Part shown: piece by piece, positions 2 to 6,439 of the stretch
How positions within the stretch are numbered: position 1 is the stretch's first letter
Layout of the letters: the number at the start of each line of letters is the position of its first letter
Assembly: GCA_016935075.1 (NCBI GenBank)
Contig: JAFGRP010000025.1
Location: forward strand, 1-42,243
Length of the DNA: 42,243 nucleotides
Direction of reading: 5' to 3'
Source of the DNA: Deltaproteobacteria bacterium
Lineage (GTDB): Bacteria; Desulfobacterota; Syntrophia; Syntrophales; UBA5619
Program-made: the position numbers and the translations under genes
The notes under the pieces: model-generated
What the model was told of the DNA's origin: nothing
Databases searched by the model: none
What the model saw: only the letters and a program-made list of their open reading frames with translations

Positions 2-250
2 ATCGGTCTCGCCTTCCAGATCGCCGACGACATCCTCAATGTCGAGGGGGATCCGGCCCTTCTTGGAAAGGGAACAGGGAGCGACGCGGCCCGCGGAAAA
101 ATCACTTTTCCCGCCCTCCTGGGGATCGACGCCTCGCGCACCCGGGCGGAGGAACTCGTCATGGAAGCGGTTGCATCGTTGGCTCCCTTCGGCGATGGGG
201 CGGCGCCGCTCCGGGCGATCGCACGGTATATCCTGGAACGGAGGTCCTGA
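2..250 (+). CDS. ispA: polyprenyl (farnesyl) diphosphate synthase, last 82 codons (5' end outside window)
   Basis: Frame 2 reads IGLAFQIADDILNVEGDPALLGKGTGSDAARGKITFPALLG...YILERRS*. FQIxDDxL is the second Asp-rich motif of trans-prenyl diphosphate synthases. The TGA at 248-250 lies 7 nt before the dxs ATG, the classic ispA-dxs linkage. It is absent from the ORF track because no start lies in the window. Confidence 0.8.
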   Translation: MGLAFQIADDILNVEGDPALLGKGTGSDAARGKITFPALLGIDASRTRAEELVMEAVASLAPFGDGAAPLRAIARYILERRS

Positions 251-257
251 AGAGACC

Positions 258-2156
258 ATGGCGGAAGAAACAAAACAGGATATTCTGTCAAAAGTTGACG
301 ATCCCAAAGATATCCGGATTCTCAGCCTGCCGGAGCTGAACCGTCTCGCGGAGGAGATCCGGGAGAGGATGATCGAGACCGTTTCGAAGTGGGGCGGCCA
401 TCTTGCCTCCTCCCTGGGAACGGTGGAACTCACGCTCGCCCTCCACTACGTCTTCGACACGCCGCGGGACCGCCTCATCTGGGACGTGGGGCATCAAGCC
501 TACACCCACAAGATCATCACCGGCCGGAAGGGACGCTTCAGCACGCTTCGCCAGCGTGGGGGAATCAGCGGTTTCCCGAAACGGGAGGAAAGCCCTTACG
601 ACACCTTCGACGTGGGACACAGCGGAACTTCCATCTCCGCGGCGGCGGGGATGGCCGAAGCGCGCTGTCTCACGGGCGAGGATTTCCGGATCATTGCCGT
701 GATCGGCGACGGAGCGATATCCGCCGGGATGGCCTTTGAAGGGCTGAACTGGACCGGAGACCGCCGCAAGAACCTGATCATCATCTTAAACGACAACGAG
801 ATGTGCATCTCCCCCAACGTCGGCGCCCTCTCCTCCTACCTGAACCGGATCATGACCGGCCAGACGGTGAACCGGATCAGGGCGGAGGTTAAGACCTTTC
901 TCAAATCGGTTCCCGGCATCGGCGAACAGATGCTGAAGTTCTCCCGCCAGGTGGAGGAGTCGCTCAAGACCTTCTTCGTCCCCGGGGCGATTTTTGAAGA
1001 GCTGGGCTTCACCTATGTGGGTCCCCTCGAGGGACATCGCCTTGATCACCTGATCCGTAATTTGAAGAACGTGAAGTTACTGGAAGGACCCATCCTGGTC
1101 CACGTCGTCACACAGAAAGGGAAGGGCTACAAATTCGCCGAAGACGATCCCTCACGGTTTCACGGCATCCCGCCGTTTGACATCGACACGGGGGAAACCG
1201 TTGCCGCCGGCGGAACGCCCACGCCCCTTTCCTATACGAAGGTGTTTGGCCAAACGATCATGAAGCTGGCCGAGGAAGATCCGCGGATCGTTGCGATCAC
1301 GGCGGCTATGTCCGAGGGAACGGGGCTTGACCGTTTCGCCGGCAAATTCCCCTCCCGGTTCTACGACGTGGGAATGGCCGAACAGCATGGGGTAACTTTT
1401 GCCGCCGGGCTTGCCACGCAGGGGTTCGTCCCGATCGTCGCGATCTATTCCACATTCATGCAGCGCGCCTACGACCAGGTGATCCACGATGTCTGCCTGC
1501 AGAAGCTGCCCGTAGTCCTGGCGTTGGACCGGGGCGGCTTCGTCGGGGCCGACGGCCCCACCCACCACGGCCTGTTCGACTTCGCCTTCCTCCGTACCGT
1601 TCCAAATCTGATCGTCATGGCGCCGAAGGACGAAAACGAGCTCCAGCACATGCTGAAAACCGCCTCAGGTTGCGGCAGTCCCGTTTCCCTGCGCTACCCC
1701 CGGGGCAAAGGGGTTGGCGTTCCGCTGGACGAGAATCCCCGGATTATCCCCGTCGGAAAAGGCGAAATTCTTTTCGATCCGCCGGGTGCGACGGCCGCCG
1801 TGGTCGCCATCGGAAACTGCTGCTACCCCGCCATGACCGCTGCCGGAATGCTCCAAGCCGAAGGGATCCCCGTTCGGGTCATCAACGCCCGGTTCGTCAA
1901 ACCCCTCGACGCGGAGATCCTCTGCGCCGCCGCGCGGGAGTTCAAGAGGATCGTTACCGTCGAAGAGAATACCCTGATGGGAGGATTCGGCAGCGCCGTC
2001 CTCGAACTCTTCGCGGAAAAGGGGATCATCGACGTTTCCGTCCGACGCCTCGGTATCCCGGATGAATTCGCCCCGCAAGCCACCCAGAAGGAGCTCCGGC
2101 GTATGTATGGGATTGATGCGGAGGGGATTGTCAAGGCCGTCCGCGAACTGTCCTAA
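258..2156 (+). CDS. dxs: 1-deoxy-D-xylulose-5-phosphate synthase
   Basis: The 632-aa product from ATG 258 (MAEETKQDILSKVDDPKDIRILS...) carries Dxs hallmarks: GGHLASSLGTVELTLALHYVFDTPRDRLIWDVGHQAYTHKIITGR, the ThDP motif GDGAISAGMAFEGLN...NDN, and AEQHGVTFAAGLA. The track ORF start at 39 overlaps ispA and is rejected. Confidence 0.95.
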   Translation: MAEETKQDILSKVDDPKDIRILSLPELNRLAEEIRERMIETVSKWGGHLASSLGTVELTLALHYVFDTPRDRLIWDVGHQAYTHKIITGRKGRFSTLRQRGGISGFPKREESPYDTFDVGHSGTSISAAAGMAEARCLTGEDFRIIAVIGDGAISAGMAFEGLNWTGDRRKNLIIILNDNEMCISPNVGALSSYLNRIMTGQTVNRIRAEVKTFLKSVPGIGEQMLKFSRQVEESLKTFFVPGAIFEELGFTYVGPLEGHRLDHLIRNLKNVKLLEGPILVHVVTQKGKGYKFAEDDPSRFHGIPPFDIDTGETVAAGGTPTPLSYTKVFGQTIMKLAEEDPRIVAITAAMSEGTGLDRFAGKFPSRFYDVGMAEQHGVTFAAGLATQGFVPIVAIYSTFMQRAYDQVIHDVCLQKLPVVLALDRGGFVGADGPTHHGLFDFAFLRTVPNLIVMAPKDENELQHMLKTASGCGSPVSLRYPRGKGVGVPLDENPRIIPVGKGEILFDPPGATAAVVAIGNCCYPAMTAAGMLQAEGIPVRVINARFVKPLDAEILCAAAREFKRIVTVEENTLMGGFGSAVLELFAEKGIIDVSVRRLGIPDEFAPQATQKELRRMYGIDAEGIVKAVRELS

Positions 2157-2168
2157 CACCTAACGTCA

Positions 2169-2229
2169 GCCATGGACAGCGACGAGGGATGGCGCGCATC
2201 GAGCGCCATCCCTCGTCGCTGTCCATGGC
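2169..2229. terminator. 27-bp perfect inverted repeat with a 7-nt loop between convergent dxs and the STAS-like ORF; probable bidirectional stop or REP-like hairpin
   Basis: 2169-2195 GCCATGGACAGCGACGAGGGATGGCGC is the exact reverse complement of 2203-2229. The loop is GCATCGA. It starts 13 nt after the dxs stop and ends 17 nt before the stop of the - strand ORF. There is no clean U-tract, so the call is structural. Confidence 0.55.
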
Positions 2230-2245
2230 ATTGTTGGGGTTCCTT

Positions 2246-2614
2246 TTACTTGTATAGAAGCCACTGCCTGGCTTCTTCGACGGTGCTGAATTCACCGGTT
2301 GTTTTGCCTCGGTTCGCTTCCACGGTGGAGGTGAATCTCACGTCCTGGCTGGACTTCGCATCCGAGGGCAGAACGTGCGCGATTTTCAGGTGCGTCGTGG
2401 TTTCGGCTAGTTTCTTGCCGAATGTGAAACAGCCTGTTGTAGAAAACGCTTCAGTACTAAGTTCTCGCAGATCAACGAGAAGACTTGAGCACACATGGCG
2501 CTCGGTCAAGGTGACAGCTTGATTCATCGCTGAATAATGATCGTCCCTCGTGCAGGGGCTTGACACAACCACAAGAACAAACCCTTCCTCAGCAAATGAA
2601 ACTGAGTATGGCAT
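2246..2614 (-). CDS. hypothetical protein, STAS/SpoIIAA-like (function unknown)
   Basis: 122-aa ORF with a strong RBS (GGAGAAGGAGGAAGACG-ATG). The pattern LLVDLRELS...IAHVLPSD...FTSTVEANRGKTTGEFSTVEEARQWL resembles small SpoIIAA-like/STAS proteins that end in ..eeA..WL. The segment is visibly AT-richer than its neighbours. Confidence 0.55.
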   Translation of the reverse strand: MPYSVSFAEEGFVLVVVSSPCTRDDHYSAMNQAVTLTERHVCSSLLVDLRELSTEAFSTTGCFTFGKKLAETTTHLKIAHVLPSDAKSSQDVRFTSTVEANRGKTTGEFSTVEEARQWLLYK

Positions 2615-2673
2615 CGTCTTCCTCCTTCTCCAGCCCCAACGATTAATATACCCAATGATTGGTATCCGATATT

Positions 2674-2682
2674 TGATATAAT
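2674..2682 (+). promoter_or_regulatory. candidate extended -10 promoter element (TGaTATAAT) upstream of tlyA-ispH
   Basis: TGATATAAT at 2674-2682 sits in the AT-rich spacer about 185 nt upstream of tlyA. I found no convincing -35. This is a sequence match only. Confidence 0.2.
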
Positions 2683-2865
2683 CCTATAGTAAATTATCAG
2701 AGAATGCCAAGGAAAACATCCTTAATATCAACGCAAATATCCTATCACCATTGAGCATTTTGTGATACTAAGAGCCCCATAGGTAAACTATGGGGAAAAC
2801 CTCCACTTAACGGTCGGTAGTACATCCTTCGGGGTTCGGGAGGCGTGATATTTACGGGGTTTGGA

Positions 2866-3660
2866 ATGACAAATCCGAAGACGCGGAAAATCCGGCTGGA
2901 TTGCCTGCTCGTCGATCGCGGCCTGGCGGAGAGCCGCCAACGGGCGAAGGCGCTCATCCTCGCCGGGGCAGTCCTCGTCGGCGATCGTCCGGCGGACAAG
3001 GCGGGAAGCGCGGTTCCCGTAGATGCGGAGATCCGGATCCGGGGTGAAGAGAACCCTTACGTCAGCCGGGGCGGCCTCAAACTTCGGGGCGCCCTCGAGA
3101 CGTTCGGCCTATCCGTCCGGGGCCTGATCGCCCTCGACGTCGGGGCCTCCACCGGAGGCTTCACCGACTGCCTCCTCCAAGCGGAAGCAACGAAGGTCTA
3201 TGCGATCGATGTCGGCTACGGCCAGCTCGCCTGGAAGCTCCGGGAGGATCCCCGGGTCGTCTGCATCGAACGGACAAATATCCGCCATTATGACGGCGAA
3301 GGCATCACGGACGGGATCGACATCGCCGTGATCGACGCATCCTTCATTTCGCTCCGATTCGTGATTCCCCCTGTTTTAAAGCTGATCGGAAATGGCGCCA
3401 TCGTCCTCGCCCTGATCAAGCCGCAGTTTGAGGTGAAAAGGAACGAGGTCGGCAAGCGCGGCGTCGTCCGGGATCCGGCACTCCATGAACGGGTTCTCGC
3501 GGAGACGGTATCCTTCTGCCGCGACCTCGGTCTCGATGTCCTGAAGAGCTGCGCATCCCCGCTCACCGGACCTGCAGGAAACCGGGAGTTTTTCATCTAT
3601 CTGAAAAAACCACCGGAAGGTGAAATCGCCGGTGACACGGGAGAAACAAGATGGCCATAA
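2866..3660 (+). CDS. tlyA: TlyA-family 16S/23S rRNA (cytidine-2'-O)-methyltransferase (hemolysin A-like)
   Basis: It has an N-terminal S4-like RLDCLLVDRGLAESRQRAKALILAGAVLV and the FtsJ-type SAM motif ALDVGASTGGFTDCLL...YAIDVGYGQLAWKLR. Start choice is ATG 2866 or GTG 2845; the GTG lies directly against its GGAGG, so ATG is preferred. The stop overlaps the ispH ATG. Confidence 0.85.
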   Translation: MTNPKTRKIRLDCLLVDRGLAESRQRAKALILAGAVLVGDRPADKAGSAVPVDAEIRIRGEENPYVSRGGLKLRGALETFGLSVRGLIALDVGASTGGFTDCLLQAEATKVYAIDVGYGQLAWKLREDPRVVCIERTNIRHYDGEGITDGIDIAVIDASFISLRFVIPPVLKLIGNGAIVLALIKPQFEVKRNEVGKRGVVRDPALHERVLAETVSFCRDLGLDVLKSCASPLTGPAGNREFFIYLKKPPEGEIAGDTGETRWP

Positions 3661-5396
3661 AGCTTGCAAAGACGGCCGGCTTCTGCATGGGGGTAAAGCG
3701 GGCCGTCGATGTGGTTCTCGATATGGCCGGCCGCCGGAGCGGGGAGGCCATCTACACGTATGGTCCCCTGATCCACAACCCCCAGATGATAGAGCTCCTC
3801 CGGAAAAGGGGCATCATCCCCATCGGGAGTCTGGATGAGATCAAATGCACCCCCGCCGGGGCGGCGATGGTAATCCGCGCTCACGGGATCTCCCCCGACG
3901 AAAGAAAGAAAATCAAGGAAAAGGGGTTCCGGATTATCGACGCCACCTGTCCCAAGGTGGCCCATGTCCAGGCGATCATCCGGAAACAGGTGGCGGCAGG
4001 CTTTACGGTCCTGATCGCAGGGGATTGGGAGCATCCGGAGGTAAACGGTCTGCTGGGATTTGCAGGCGAGGCGGGGATCGTTCTCGGCGTTCCCGAAGAT
4101 GTGGATCGCCTCCCTGCTTTGCCGAAGGTGTGCGTCGTCGCCCAGACGACGCAGAGCCTGAAGGATTACGCAGCCATCGTCCGGCGGGTGAAGGAGCGAT
4201 TCCCGGAGGCGGTCATCTTCGACACAATCTGCGACTCCACAGAAACGAGGCAGACCGAGATCAAGGCGCTCGCCGCCGAAACGGACGCCGTCCTCATCAT
4301 CGGAGGCCTGAACAGCGCGAACACACGGCGCCTTGCGGAACTCGCGAAACTTCAGGGTAAACCCGCTTTCCATATCGAGACCTCCGGTGATCTCCAGGGG
4401 ATCGACATCGAACCTTACCGGAGGATCGGCGTCTCCGCCGGTGCCTCGACCCCAAACTGGATCATCGACCAGGTGGTGGATCATCTGACCGGCCGCCTGG
4501 GAAAGAGGGAGGAATTCCTCCGGTATCTCTTCAAGATCTGGGTTTTTGCCGTCCGCATGGATATTTACTCAGCCACGGGGGCGGGTTGTCTCTCATTTGC
4601 CGCCATGCTCCTCCAGGGACTGCCGGTGACCTTCCTTCCCATCCTGACCGCCTCCCTTTACGTCTACGCCATGCACGTCCTCAACCGCTTCACCAACCGG
4701 AAGGCCAGCAGCATCAGCTCCTTCCGCGAGGAGTCCTATCTCCTCCACGAAAAGATCTACGTCGCACTGGCCGTTTTCTCGATGATCCTTGCGCTCAGCG
4801 CCTCCTTTGCCGCAGGGACGGCGCCTTTCATTCTCCTGTTCGTCATCTCCCTCTCCGGTATTCTTTACAATACGAAGATTTTGCCGCCGGGATGGCGATT
4901 TCAGAGTCTGAAGGACATCCCGGGATCTAAGAACATCGCAACCGCCATTGCCTGGGCATCCGTCACGGCGCTGCTGCCGTGGATCGAGGCCGGACCGATC
5001 CCCGCACCCGGGGTTGTGACGGCCTTCCTTTTCATTGCCGCCATCGTCTTCATCCGTTCCGCGCTGTCGGATATCCTCGATATCCAGAGCGACAGGCTGA
5101 TCGGCCGGGAAACCCTCCCCGTTCTCATCGGCGAGGGGAAAACCCTCACCCTCCTTCAGGGGATCTCCGGCCTCCTGTTTGTCCTGCTCTGCGTTGCCCC
5201 TTCGGCCGGATGGTCGACCTCGCTCAGTTTTTTTCTATTAGCCTGTGTATTTTATATATGGATTTGTTTCAAACTTTATGATAGAAGGTCCGGGTTTTCC
5301 GGAGTCGTTCTGGAAGGCCTCCTGGAGAGCGGTTACATCATCGCCGGAATCATTGCCTTTTTATGGCTCGCGGCGGTTCGGGGTCTGTCTGCCTGA
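3651..5396 (+). CDS. ispH: 4-hydroxy-3-methylbut-2-enyl diphosphate reductase (IspH/LytB) fused to a C-terminal UbiA-superfamily polytopic membrane domain
   Basis: aa 1-285 carry the IspH Cys ligands GFC12MGV, ATC100PKV and TIC194DST, plus GGLNSANT and SAGASTP. aa 290-581 hold about 8 hydrophobic spans, LKDIPGSKN, and D474ILDIQSD481-RLIGRETLPV (the UbiA second Asp motif). The ATG overlaps the tlyA stop (ATGGCCATAA). Confidence 0.9.
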   Translation: MAIKLAKTAGFCMGVKRAVDVVLDMAGRRSGEAIYTYGPLIHNPQMIELLRKRGIIPIGSLDEIKCTPAGAAMVIRAHGISPDERKKIKEKGFRIIDATCPKVAHVQAIIRKQVAAGFTVLIAGDWEHPEVNGLLGFAGEAGIVLGVPEDVDRLPALPKVCVVAQTTQSLKDYAAIVRRVKERFPEAVIFDTICDSTETRQTEIKALAAETDAVLIIGGLNSANTRRLAELAKLQGKPAFHIETSGDLQGIDIEPYRRIGVSAGASTPNWIIDQVVDHLTGRLGKREEFLRYLFKIWVFAVRMDIYSATGAGCLSFAAMLLQGLPVTFLPILTASLYVYAMHVLNRFTNRKASSISSFREESYLLHEKIYVALAVFSMILALSASFAAGTAPFILLFVISLSGILYNTKILPPGWRFQSLKDIPGSKNIATAIAWASVTALLPWIEAGPIPAPGVVTAFLFIAAIVFIRSALSDILDIQSDRLIGRETLPVLIGEGKTLTLLQGISGLLFVLLCVAPSAGWSTSLSFFLLACVFYIWICFKLYDRRSGFSGVVLEGLLESGYIIAGIIAFLWLAAVRGLSA

Positions 5397-5408
5397 ACCG
5401 GAGGGATC

Positions 5409-5999
5409 GTGATAAAAAAACCGTGGACAACGGCCATCATTGCGCCCCTTTTCCTGGGCATTCTGAGCTGTGGCGGGCTCCGCTATTCGGAGGTGTCACC
5501 GGATGCACGGGATTTTCATCCCCAACGGATCGCGGTCCTTCCCGCCGATACCAGGGCCTTTGCGGAAGCCAAGGGCGACGTCGATCGTCTTTTCGCCGAG
5601 GTCCTGAGCGAAAAGAAGTGGTTCGCCGGCGTGGTCGGAGGGGAAACCATCAGCCGCCGTATGGAATCGGATGGAACGTTCAGGCAGGTTATCACGGACT
5701 ACCTGGCGAAGCTTGCGAACGTCAATTTCTCCGATCCGGCGCTGAGCGGAACGATTGGCGGGATGACCGGCGCCGAGGCTTTTCTGCTCGTCCGCGTCGA
5801 TTACTGGAACTACACGACGCAGAGCAGCGATAAGATTGCCAAGGTCAGCCTCAGCATCAGGATGATCGAGGCGAAGACGGGAAAGACCCTCTGGACGGCG
5901 GGTCATCACAGGATCAGCGACTATATGATCATCAAACCGGACCTTCCCGATGTGGCGAGGGCTCTCATCCGCGAGATGATCGGCTATATGCCGCACTGA
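5409..5999 (+). CDS. lipoprotein of unknown function
   Basis: GTG start 4-5 nt after GGAGGG. The signal peptide plus lipobox is MIKKPWTTAIIAPLFLGILS-C. The mature part, an alpha/beta-looking ...FLLVRVDYWNYTT...SLSIRMIEAKTGKTLW, loosely resembles DUF799/LpoB-type lipoproteins. Confidence 0.7.
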   Translation: MIKKPWTTAIIAPLFLGILSCGGLRYSEVSPDARDFHPQRIAVLPADTRAFAEAKGDVDRLFAEVLSEKKWFAGVVGGETISRRMESDGTFRQVITDYLAKLANVNFSDPALSGTIGGMTGAEAFLLVRVDYWNYTTQSSDKIAKVSLSIRMIEAKTGKTLWTAGHHRISDYMIIKPDLPDVARALIREMIGYMPH

Positions 6000-6024
6000 C
6001 AGTCTATTTAGAAAATCGCTGATC

Positions 6025-6174
6025 CAGGCTGTTCAAAAATGTCTGGATGCAAGGCCCCCGAATTCGAAGAATCGTGGAGCAAAGCGGGACCAATCCTGAG
6101 CCGTGAGGCGTAATGGTACGGTGAACGACGAAGGATGAGGGAAACGCAGCAGACAGGCGTTTTTCAACAGCCTG
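6025..6174. repeat. 150-nt MITE/REP-like element bounded by 15-nt imperfect terminal inverted repeats
   Basis: CAGGCTGTTCAAAAA (6025-6039) pairs with TTTTTCAACAGCCTG (6160-6174) at 14/15 complementary positions. The pairing is extended by TGTCTG (6040-6045) and CAGACA (6150-6155). It lies in the spacer between the lipoprotein and nifU-like genes. Confidence 0.45.
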
Positions 6175-6217
6175 CTGACAAACCGTTAGATACCGATGTA
6201 AATGGAGAGAAGAACAA

Positions 6218-6439
6218 ATGAAGGAAGAAGTGAAGAAGGTAATCGACCGGATCAGACCCGGTCTCCAGGCGGATGGCGGGGATGTGGAATTGATCGACGT
6301 GGGCGACGACGGCGTGGTTAAAGTGAGGCTTGTGGGGGCCTGTCACGGCTGCCCGATGGCCCAGATAACCCTGAAGAACGGGATCGAAAAATCTCTTAAA
6401 CAGGAGGTTCCCGCCGTTAAATCGGTGGTTTCCGTTTAA
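6218..6439 (+). CDS. NifU-like (Nfu C-terminal domain) Fe-S cluster carrier protein
   Basis: 73 aa: VIDRIRPGLQADGGDVELIDVGDDGVVKVRLVGACHGCPMAQITLKNGIE. This is the canonical NifU C-terminal domain with a CxxC motif. An RBS GGAGAG is present. Confidence 0.85.
   Translation: MKEEVKKVIDRIRPGLQADGGDVELIDVGDDGVVKVRLVGACHGCPMAQITLKNGIEKSLKQEVPAVKSVVSV

Follow-up and report, generated by a model that had tools for sequence, protein, structure and literature searches.

The question raised by the locus described here is what a UbiA-fold membrane domain may do when it is joined, within a single protein, to the isoprenoid-producing enzyme IspH and when its first Asp-rich motif carries no acidic residue. 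The locus lies in a 42,243-nt stretch of DNA (contig JAFGRP010000025.1 of GenBank assembly GCA_016935075.1, Deltaproteobacteria bacterium; Syntrophales, UBA5619), the whole of which was analyzed and is referred to below as the window. The gene in question is:

3651..5396, + strand: ispH::ubiA-like fusion gene, 581 codons plus stop, recognized by Pfam and NCBIfam models and found in a continuous frame in 75/80 related genomes

Our analyses indicate that the window protein is most likely a membrane-tethered housekeeping IspH with a functional, non-canonical UbiA domain. The fusion itself has been known since 2015; what is new is that its first Asp-rich motif (motif I) is degenerate across the whole family despite sequence constraint, and that the family has a wider taxonomic range.

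Relatives were sought in one genome per GTDB species, and 356 genomes were found to encode one; locus counts for Syntrophales refer to the best 80 of these 356 genomes, all of which are Syntrophales, Syntrophaceae or Smithella metagenome-assembled genomes. Loci from other clades (n = 79, "distant loci") were collected with a single distant fusion protein (P0106) as query, and the UbiA half of the window protein was used as query in an exhaustive phmmer search against 1.84 billion representatives. Conservation was counted at the clade level among 76 Syntrophales sequences (window included) and family-wide in an alignment of 85 full-length sequences with identities down to approx. 30%.

The gene had been described in a first-pass annotation as a single unbroken 581-codon open reading frame (ORF), and we found no interruption in it. 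Moreover, a single tblastn high-scoring segment pair (HSP) extended from amino acid (aa) 1 to ~575 in the same frame in 75 of the 80 Syntrophales genomes, i.e., the stop codon or frameshift between the two halves that could have exposed the fusion as spurious was not seen in these close relatives. Among the other five loci, four end at contig ends and one (L077) changes frame. L077 (7121-8837) is the sole locus of the 80 with its IspH and UbiA halves in different frames; its HSPs overlap at aa 295-305, and the frame change could stem from an indel introduced by sequencing or mean that the gene is really divided where the two domains meet. At E ≤ 1e-3, the phmmer search returned 1123 matches, and the stricter threshold of E ≤ 1e-10 left 429 clusters; among the top 150 matches, most are 560-600 aa long, with the matched region at ~290-580, and both halves are present in 73 of the 79 distant loci. 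IspH-UbiA fusions form a real protein family that is widespread and has a standard architecture. That a lost stop or a frameshift in assembly or sequencing joined two separate genes, as the frame change of L077 might suggest, is scarcely credible in view of one continuous frame in so many independent species-level genomes (75/80), hundreds of clusters of ~580-aa proteins, a GC content that is flat across the IspH/UbiA junction, and an architecture that has already been published (PMC4746011).

The N-terminal half of the protein comprises the following features:

3651..4493, + strand: IspH (LytB) domain, aa 1-281 (TIGR00216, alignment to E. coli IspH, Foldseek)
3684..3686, + strand: Cys12, Fe-S ligand, aligned to C12 of E. 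coli IspH (Ec) and conserved wherever the N-terminus is present in the family
3948..3950, + strand: Cys100, Fe-S ligand, aligned to Ec C96, present in 85/85 sequences
4230..4232, + strand: Cys194, Fe-S ligand, aligned to Ec C197, present in 85/85 sequences

This half matches Pfam LYTB at aa 3-279 with 294 bits (gathering score 24.5) and NCBIfam TIGR00216 (IspH) with 273.7 bits (cutoff 187.85), and the NCBIfam model for IspH-S1 proteins (NF000907) covers the IspH part alone. An end-to-end alignment with E. coli IspH (36% identity) pairs H42, H78, H128, E130, T166/T167, S222, N224 and S266 with Ec H41, H74, H124, E126, T167/T168, S225, N227 and S269, respectively; the position of Ec S226 is Ala in the window protein. 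The hallmark motifs that had been recognized at first sight, i.e., GFCMGV (C12), ATCPKV (C100), TICDST (C194), GGLNSANT and SAGASTP, are all in place, and a Foldseek search with the N-terminal half retrieved the trefoil alpha/beta fold of IspH structures 3szu and 3ke8 (E = 1e-19, TM-score 0.83). By residues, profile and fold, the N-terminal half thus appears to be a complete [4Fe-4S] (E)-4-hydroxy-3-methylbut-2-enyl diphosphate reductase. IspH is an essential enzyme and a drug target. Judging by its gene neighbourhood and by the constraint on its sequence, the window fusion probably serves as the housekeeping IspH of its host; as signs of IspH function, the ispA-dxs-tlyA context and the ratio of nonsynonymous to synonymous substitution rates (dN/dS) of 0.146 for the IspH half are suggestive only.

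The second half begins with a short linker that leads into the transmembrane (TM) domain, as laid out in an AlphaFold2 (AF2) model built on a 51-sequence alignment:

4494..4562, + strand: basic linker, aa 282-304, with a helix at 288-302, from IspH to TM1 (AF2 secondary structure; six Lys/Arg)
4563..5393, + strand: UbiA-fold domain with nine TM helices, aa 305-581 (Pfam, AF2, Foldseek, positive-inside count)
aa 305-321, 328-349, 367-388, 390-407, 426-447, 453-476, 495-518, 525-544 and 551-580: the TM helices (AF2)

Both family profiles by which the first-pass annotation proposed to check the two halves, LYTB and UbiA, score above their gathering scores; for Pfam UbiA (PF01040, aa 314-546) the score is 40.0 bits with the full-length protein and 40.7 bits with the C-terminal half (gathering score 34.2). 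In the AF2 model, which has a mean predicted local distance difference test score (pLDDT) of 82.6 and a predicted TM-score (pTM) of 0.73, most membrane helices exceed a pLDDT of 90, and the helices number nine rather than the roughly eight hydrophobic spans counted earlier. Foldseek matched the C-terminal half to AfUbiA (4tq3), ApUbiA (4od4; TM-score 0.72), DGGGPS (6m31 and 7bpu) and UBIAD1 (8djk) with E-values of 1e-5 to 5e-4. Significant matches to the UbiA family were therefore obtained for aa 290-581 by profile as well as by structure. None of the NCBIfam equivalog models for prenyltransferases reached its cutoff with the window protein; the best was NF010117 (PRK13591) with 58.8 bits against a cutoff of 238, the DGGGPS and MenA models gave at most 27 bits against cutoffs above 260 (E of 0.006 or worse for the MenA type), and the UbiA (4-hydroxybenzoate) model gave no match.

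The predicted cytoplasmic loops hold 16 Lys and Arg residues and the periplasmic loops none, and this split places IspH and all conserved UbiA loops on the cytoplasmic side. The model accordingly has the N-terminus of the domain inside and its C-terminus outside; IspH is predicted to be tethered covalently to the cytoplasmic face of the inner membrane by the nine-TM UbiA fold, and the conserved loops after TM2, TM4, TM6 and TM8 are predicted to share that side with it. Four elements of the domain are of particular note:

4683..4709, + strand: degenerate first motif N345-R-F-T-N349-R-K-A-S353, placed by hhalign at the canonical NDxxDxxxD site, no acidic residue
4866..4868, + strand: Tyr406, equivalent to AfUbiA Y139, a near-universal Tyr of the UbiA family (84/85 family-wide, 76/76 Syntrophales)
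4908..4934, + strand: L-K421-D-I-P-G-S426-K427-N loop between TM4 and TM5, a family signature (K421 = AfUbiA K146 in the HMMER alignment to 4tq3)
5070..5132, + strand: second Asp-rich motif and loop, D474-x-x-D477-x-x-x-D481-x-x-x-G485-R-E487-T488-x-P490...G494, with D477 and D481 equivalent to EcUbiA D191 and D195

The landmarks on which the UbiA assignment was originally based, i.e., LKDIPGSKN (aa 420-428) and D474-ILD477-IQS-D481 (nt 5070-5093), were recovered at these positions. A search of the PDB with the C-terminal half as a single sequence gave no match, and a 19-sequence HMMER profile gave a weak partial match to 4tq3 with motif I outside the aligned part; because these searches were null or fell short of motif I, the mapping of this motif was taken from an hhalign comparison of two profiles, one built from 84 full-length members of the family and the other from E. 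coli UbiA, MenA and CyoE (NC_000913.3). This comparison aligned 204 columns (probability 95.6%, E = 1.3e-8), whereas hhalign against E. coli UbiA alone gave a weak probability of 2% and was used for the second motif only. In the resulting alignment to EcUbiA, N345 corresponds to N67, R346 to D68, N349 to D71, R350 to R72, K351 to K73, S353 to D75, D477 to D191 and D481 to D195. The first-pass annotation had pointed out that N345-RFTNRKASS (from nt 4683) contains no Asp where UbiA enzymes have NDxxDxxxD, and the profile alignment agrees, with only the Asn retained; it indicates a true loss of this motif rather than an error of alignment. In the window protein, D477xxxD481 gives the second motif its canonical form.

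We then asked how far this pattern extends beyond the window. The position of EcD68 is Asp in none of the 85 family sequences (R in 36, H in 18, N in 8, Q in 7, others in the rest), the position of EcD71 is acidic in 58, and that of EcD75 in about a quarter; in 11 sequences the D71 and D75 positions are both acidic, and only three sequences have a strict D..D. Among the Syntrophales sequences, position 349 is N in 44, D in 12, S in 11, G in 6, T in 2 and A in 1, i.e., non-acidic in 64 of 76. The Asp equivalent to AfUbiA D72 has also been lost in other clades, as in Scalindua (NYFANKEAA), in Desulfurivibrionaceae/Desulfobulbaceae (NRFSGEHSR) and in the Nitrospinaceae type (NNLIGTKAD), and these losses appear to be independent among clades. 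The first motif is thus degenerate across the whole fusion family, with the Syntrophales one step further along, and the degeneracy is not peculiar to the window protein.

The remainder of the pocket is strongly conserved. N345, R346, R359, Y406, S426, K427, D481, E487 and T488 are each found in 76/76 Syntrophales sequences, and the family-wide counts (n = 85) are 85 for D481, 83 for G485, 80 for S426, 79 for E487, 77 for P424 and 76 for T488; position 427 is K in 78 and R in 7 sequences, and W435 and G494 are nearly invariant. Selection was assessed by Nei-Gojobori dN/dS, and the median over 529 unsaturated pairs was 0.176 for the UbiA half as compared to 0.146 for the IspH half. These values indicate that the UbiA-fold domain is under purifying selection and evolves nearly as slowly as IspH, and that it is no relic. 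In AfUbiA, N68 and D72 of motif I and D198 and D202 of motif II coordinate two Mg2+ ions, and the mutations N68A, D72A, R22A and K146A abolish binding of geranyl diphosphate (GPP); E. coli MenA (EcMenA) mutants at the equivalent motif I and II residues and at the conserved Tyr lose function (PMC4106721). Judged from its residues, the pocket of the window protein should be unable to hold Mg2+-diphosphate between two Asp-rich motifs in the canonical manner.

The first-pass annotation had assumed that IspH fusions are limited to those with S1 repeats. This proved incorrect; 47 IspH-UbiA hybrids of the class PT_UbiA_5 were described by Rao, O'Dowd, Li, Wang and Oldfield in 2015 (Chem Sci 6:6813; PMC4746011), and relatives are annotated by NCBI and JGI. 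The window gene appears to be the Syntrophales ortholog of this published family rather than a new kind of system, and we infer its PT_UbiA_5 assignment from that study. As in the published hybrids, an N-terminal IspH with three Cys ligands is followed by a C-terminal nine-TM UbiA-like domain in a protein of ~580 aa. Rao et al. proposed that the UbiA domain localizes IspH to the membrane and uses isoprenoids made from IspH products, and their argument for activity was the presence of "two DXXXD repeats" (PMC4746011); the first DXXXD is, however, absent from the window protein, and a strict D..D is as rare family-wide as reported above.

The hosts also differ. While the hybrids were reported to be "all in sulfate-reducing anaerobes" (PMC4746011), the host of the window is a member of the Syntrophales, and the fusions that we found range over Syntrophales, Scalindua/Brocadiaceae, Nitrospinaceae/Nitrospinota, Desulfobulbia, Desulfobacterales, Thermodesulfobacteriales and Desulfofervidaceae. 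Full-length fusions occur in Nitrospinaceae/Nitrospinota and Candidatus Scalindua/Brocadiaceae (loci L100, L153, L127-L132, L140 and L142), and these Nitrospinota and Scalindua fusions contradict the published limit. A further full-length fusion, 48% identical to P0106, is encoded at 4745-6433 of a 6.8-kb contig binned as "Promethearchaeota archaeon" (L096); this contig is more likely mis-binned bacterial DNA than the carrier of an Asgard archaeal gene.

When compared to canonical UbiA enzymes (EcUbiA/MenA, AfUbiA 4TQ3, ApUbiA 4OD5, DGGGPS 6M31/7BPU and UBIAD1 8DJK), the window domain shares the nine-TM fold (TM-score to target 0.6-0.72), the cytoplasmic placement of the motifs, and the residues N345 (N67/N68), Y406 (Y139), K421 (K146) and D477xxxD481 (D191/D195 and D198/D202). 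On the other hand, it has R in place of D68, N in place of D71/D72 and S in place of D75/D76, carries an extra K-D-I-P-G-S-K insertion in loop 4-5, is only ~15% identical to these enzymes and reaches no equivalog threshold. Phmmer matches of ~300-470 aa are mostly fragments with IspH C-terminal sequence; the truly unfused relatives are P0102, P0220 and P0226 (and possibly P0203). P0102, P0220 and P0226, which are PRK13591-like (NF010117, 72-86 bits, below the cutoff of 238) and one of which lies in an archaeal-type gene neighbourhood, resemble the fusions in that their first motif also opens with N-R and in that they have a K-E-I-P-x-x-K loop and the second motif, but are ~310 aa long and read N-R-K-T-D-E-x-E-D, with both Asp retained. 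The IspH-RPS1 fusions of Clostridia and Fusobacteria likewise carry IspH as the N-terminal module of a two-module protein; their partner, however, consists of soluble S1 RNA-binding repeats and not of a membrane domain, and the IspH activity of these fusions does not depend on whether the S1 repeats are present (PMC4746011).

These comparisons leave several readings of the fused domain to be weighed. The one that we favour, with a probability of roughly 50%, is that the UbiA-fold pocket still handles an isoprenoid (di)phosphate and performs a non-canonical transfer fed by local isopentenyl diphosphate (IPP) and dimethylallyl diphosphate (DMAPP). The (di)phosphate would be bound through N345 and the second-motif metal site (D477/D481), the basic residues that replace or surround the first motif (R346, R350, K351, R359, K421 and K427) might assist in binding it, and IPP and DMAPP made next door by IspH would feed the step of prenyl transfer or prenyl-phosphate handling. 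Several observations weigh against this proposal. As AfUbiA D72A binds no GPP, an Asp-free first motif may mean that no prenyl diphosphate is bound and that no catalysis takes place. A catalytic ligand would seldom vary as widely as position 349 does (N, D, S, G, T or A); the loop at 351-356, directly after the first motif, has a pLDDT below 50 in the AF2 model; the fusion has no conserved partner or acceptor-pathway gene outside the Syntrophales (79 loci, and L086); and attempts to express a full-length hybrid failed (PMC4746011). That the domain is simply a canonical quinone prenyltransferase of the UbiA or MenA type that happens to be fused to IspH is very improbable, even though JGI labels some fragments "4-hydroxybenzoate polyprenyltransferase" and Pfam UbiA is matched above its gathering score, as the equivalog cutoffs are all missed widely, the first motif does not conform, the nearest unfused relatives are uncharacterized archaeal-type proteins, and separate UbiA and MenA genes exist in the genomes that carry hybrids (PMC4746011).

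The first-pass annotation had offered two readings of its own, i.e., channeling of the IspH product into a prenylation step with atypical diphosphate binding, and a catalytically dead fold that serves as an anchor or a sensor for IspH; channeling and the sensor role both stand after our analyses, while a dead fold as a mere anchor is disfavoured by the dN/dS of 0.18 and the invariant polar pocket. An inert anchor, without catalysis or ligand and merely holding IspH at the membrane, would agree with the absence of the first Asp-rich motif, and membrane localization was also considered by Rao et al. (PMC4746011). However, such an anchor needs hydrophobic helices and not nine invariant polar residues on cytoplasmic loops (76/76), its dN/dS would not be expected so near that of an essential enzyme domain, and D481 is kept in every one of 85 representatives that span identities down to ~30%; we thus consider this reading unlikely. 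A role as sensor or regulator, in which a pseudo-enzyme UbiA fold would bind a membrane isoprenoid (a polyprenyl (di)phosphate or a quinone) and tune or position IspH, is a possibility of some weight, although on balance it is doubtful. The protein would then be a covalent bacterial analogue of the pair formed by UBIAD1 and HMG-CoA reductase (HMGCR). UBIAD1 is a sensor of geranylgeranyl diphosphate for HMGCR. Consistent with such a role, the Asp equivalent to D72 has been lost repeatedly (Syntrophales, Scalindua, Desulfurivibrionaceae and the Nitrospinaceae type) with the rest of the pocket fixed, the Foldseek matches include UBIAD1 as bound to HMGCR (8djk), genes of an acceptor pathway are missing around the fusion in the 79 distant loci, and D72A abolishes GPP binding in AfUbiA (PMC4106721). 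Conversely, the domain keeps Y406, N345 and the two Asp of the second motif, more than a pure binding module would require; UBIAD1 is still an active enzyme with canonical motifs, and IspH is not known to be regulated allosterically.

A broader proposal, which we put forward as tentative and rather improbable in its entirety, is that the fused PT_UbiA_5 domain represents a functionally new class of the UbiA fold. Lacking the Mg2+ site of the first motif, such a domain would bind an isoprenoid (di)phosphate by means of Asn345, Arg/Lys residues and just one metal site, that of the second motif, and would then either make a prenylated membrane compound from the C5 products of IspH or gate the last step of the methylerythritol phosphate (MEP) pathway as an isoprenoid sensor; this class would be common to Syntrophales, many Desulfobacterota, anammox Scalindua and Nitrospinota.

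The genes around the fusion in the window are, in order:

2..250, + strand: 3' end of ispA (farnesyl diphosphate synthase), last ~80 codons, cut by the window edge; frame-2 translation IGLAFQIADDILN...ILERRS*
258..2156, + strand: dxs (1-deoxy-D-xylulose 5-phosphate synthase), Pfam DXP_synthase_N 404 bits plus transketolase domains, syntenic in 62/80
2845..3660, + strand: tlyA-type gene for an S4 plus FtsJ methyltransferase protein, Pfam FtsJ 148 bits and S4 33 bits, syntenic in 71/80
5409..5999, + strand: 196-aa predicted lipoprotein, 12 nt 3' of the fusion stop, directly downstream in 80/80 Syntrophales
6218..6439, + strand: 73-aa protein with a NifU-like (Nfu-type) Fe-S carrier domain, Pfam NifU 101 bits, syntenic in 75/80

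The partial ORF at 2..250 we take to be ispA from its second motif, FQxxDDxxD (FQIADDILN...). The presence of ispA and dxs upstream, and the overlap of 10 nt between the fusion ATG and the tlyA stop, were as first described. The gene order is rigid among Syntrophales (ispA-dxs-tlyA-ispH::ubiA-lipoprotein-nifU-tmk-holB-PSP1-metG, with tmk in 75/80), which fits a housekeeping role in the MEP pathway. Linkage to the lipoprotein, nifU and tlyA genes was not found beside the fusion in the 79 distant loci nor in L086, and a 28%-identical member of the fusion family sits between rsfS and a DUF116 gene. As the Syntrophales neighbours are missing in these loci, a conserved partner gene was rejected as a family-wide functional clue, and gene context gives no family-wide indication of an acceptor. 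The lipoprotein, which matches a Pfam GNA1162-like model with 21 bits (below cutoff) and has no NCBIfam match, is possibly an operon partner, in Syntrophales only. The NifU-like protein, two genes downstream, may be relevant to the delivery of the cluster to IspH; in L085, the nifU-like gene is followed by that of a small ferredoxin.

Two further observations concern the region upstream of the fusion. The spacer between dxs and tlyA in the window (2200-3000) is ~650 nt longer than in relatives and has a GC content of 43-52% as compared to ~60% in its flanks. An ORF within it (2246..2614, - strand, 122 aa) showed no Pfam or NCBIfam match and no tblastn match in the 80 related loci; either it was inserted in this lineage alone or it is not a real gene. 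In addition, the mechanically called dxs ORF (39-2156, + strand) opens 73 codons before M74 (nt 258), where translation probably begins; these additional codons run over the 3' end of ispA in a different frame and do not belong to the synthase.

Taken by itself, the window locus adds no more than one further ortholog to a family already described, and this IspH-UbiA family is a large one (356 species-level genomes and 429 clusters) whose taxonomic and ecological range extends beyond sulfate reducers. The sole published argument for prenyltransferase activity of the fused domain, i.e., its two DXXXD motifs, fails across the family, and yet the domain is strongly constrained. Candidate residues for mutation are N345, R346, Y406, K427, D477, D481 and E487. 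The question thus shifts from which quinone or lipid is prenylated by these proteins to what a UbiA fold does without its first metal site.

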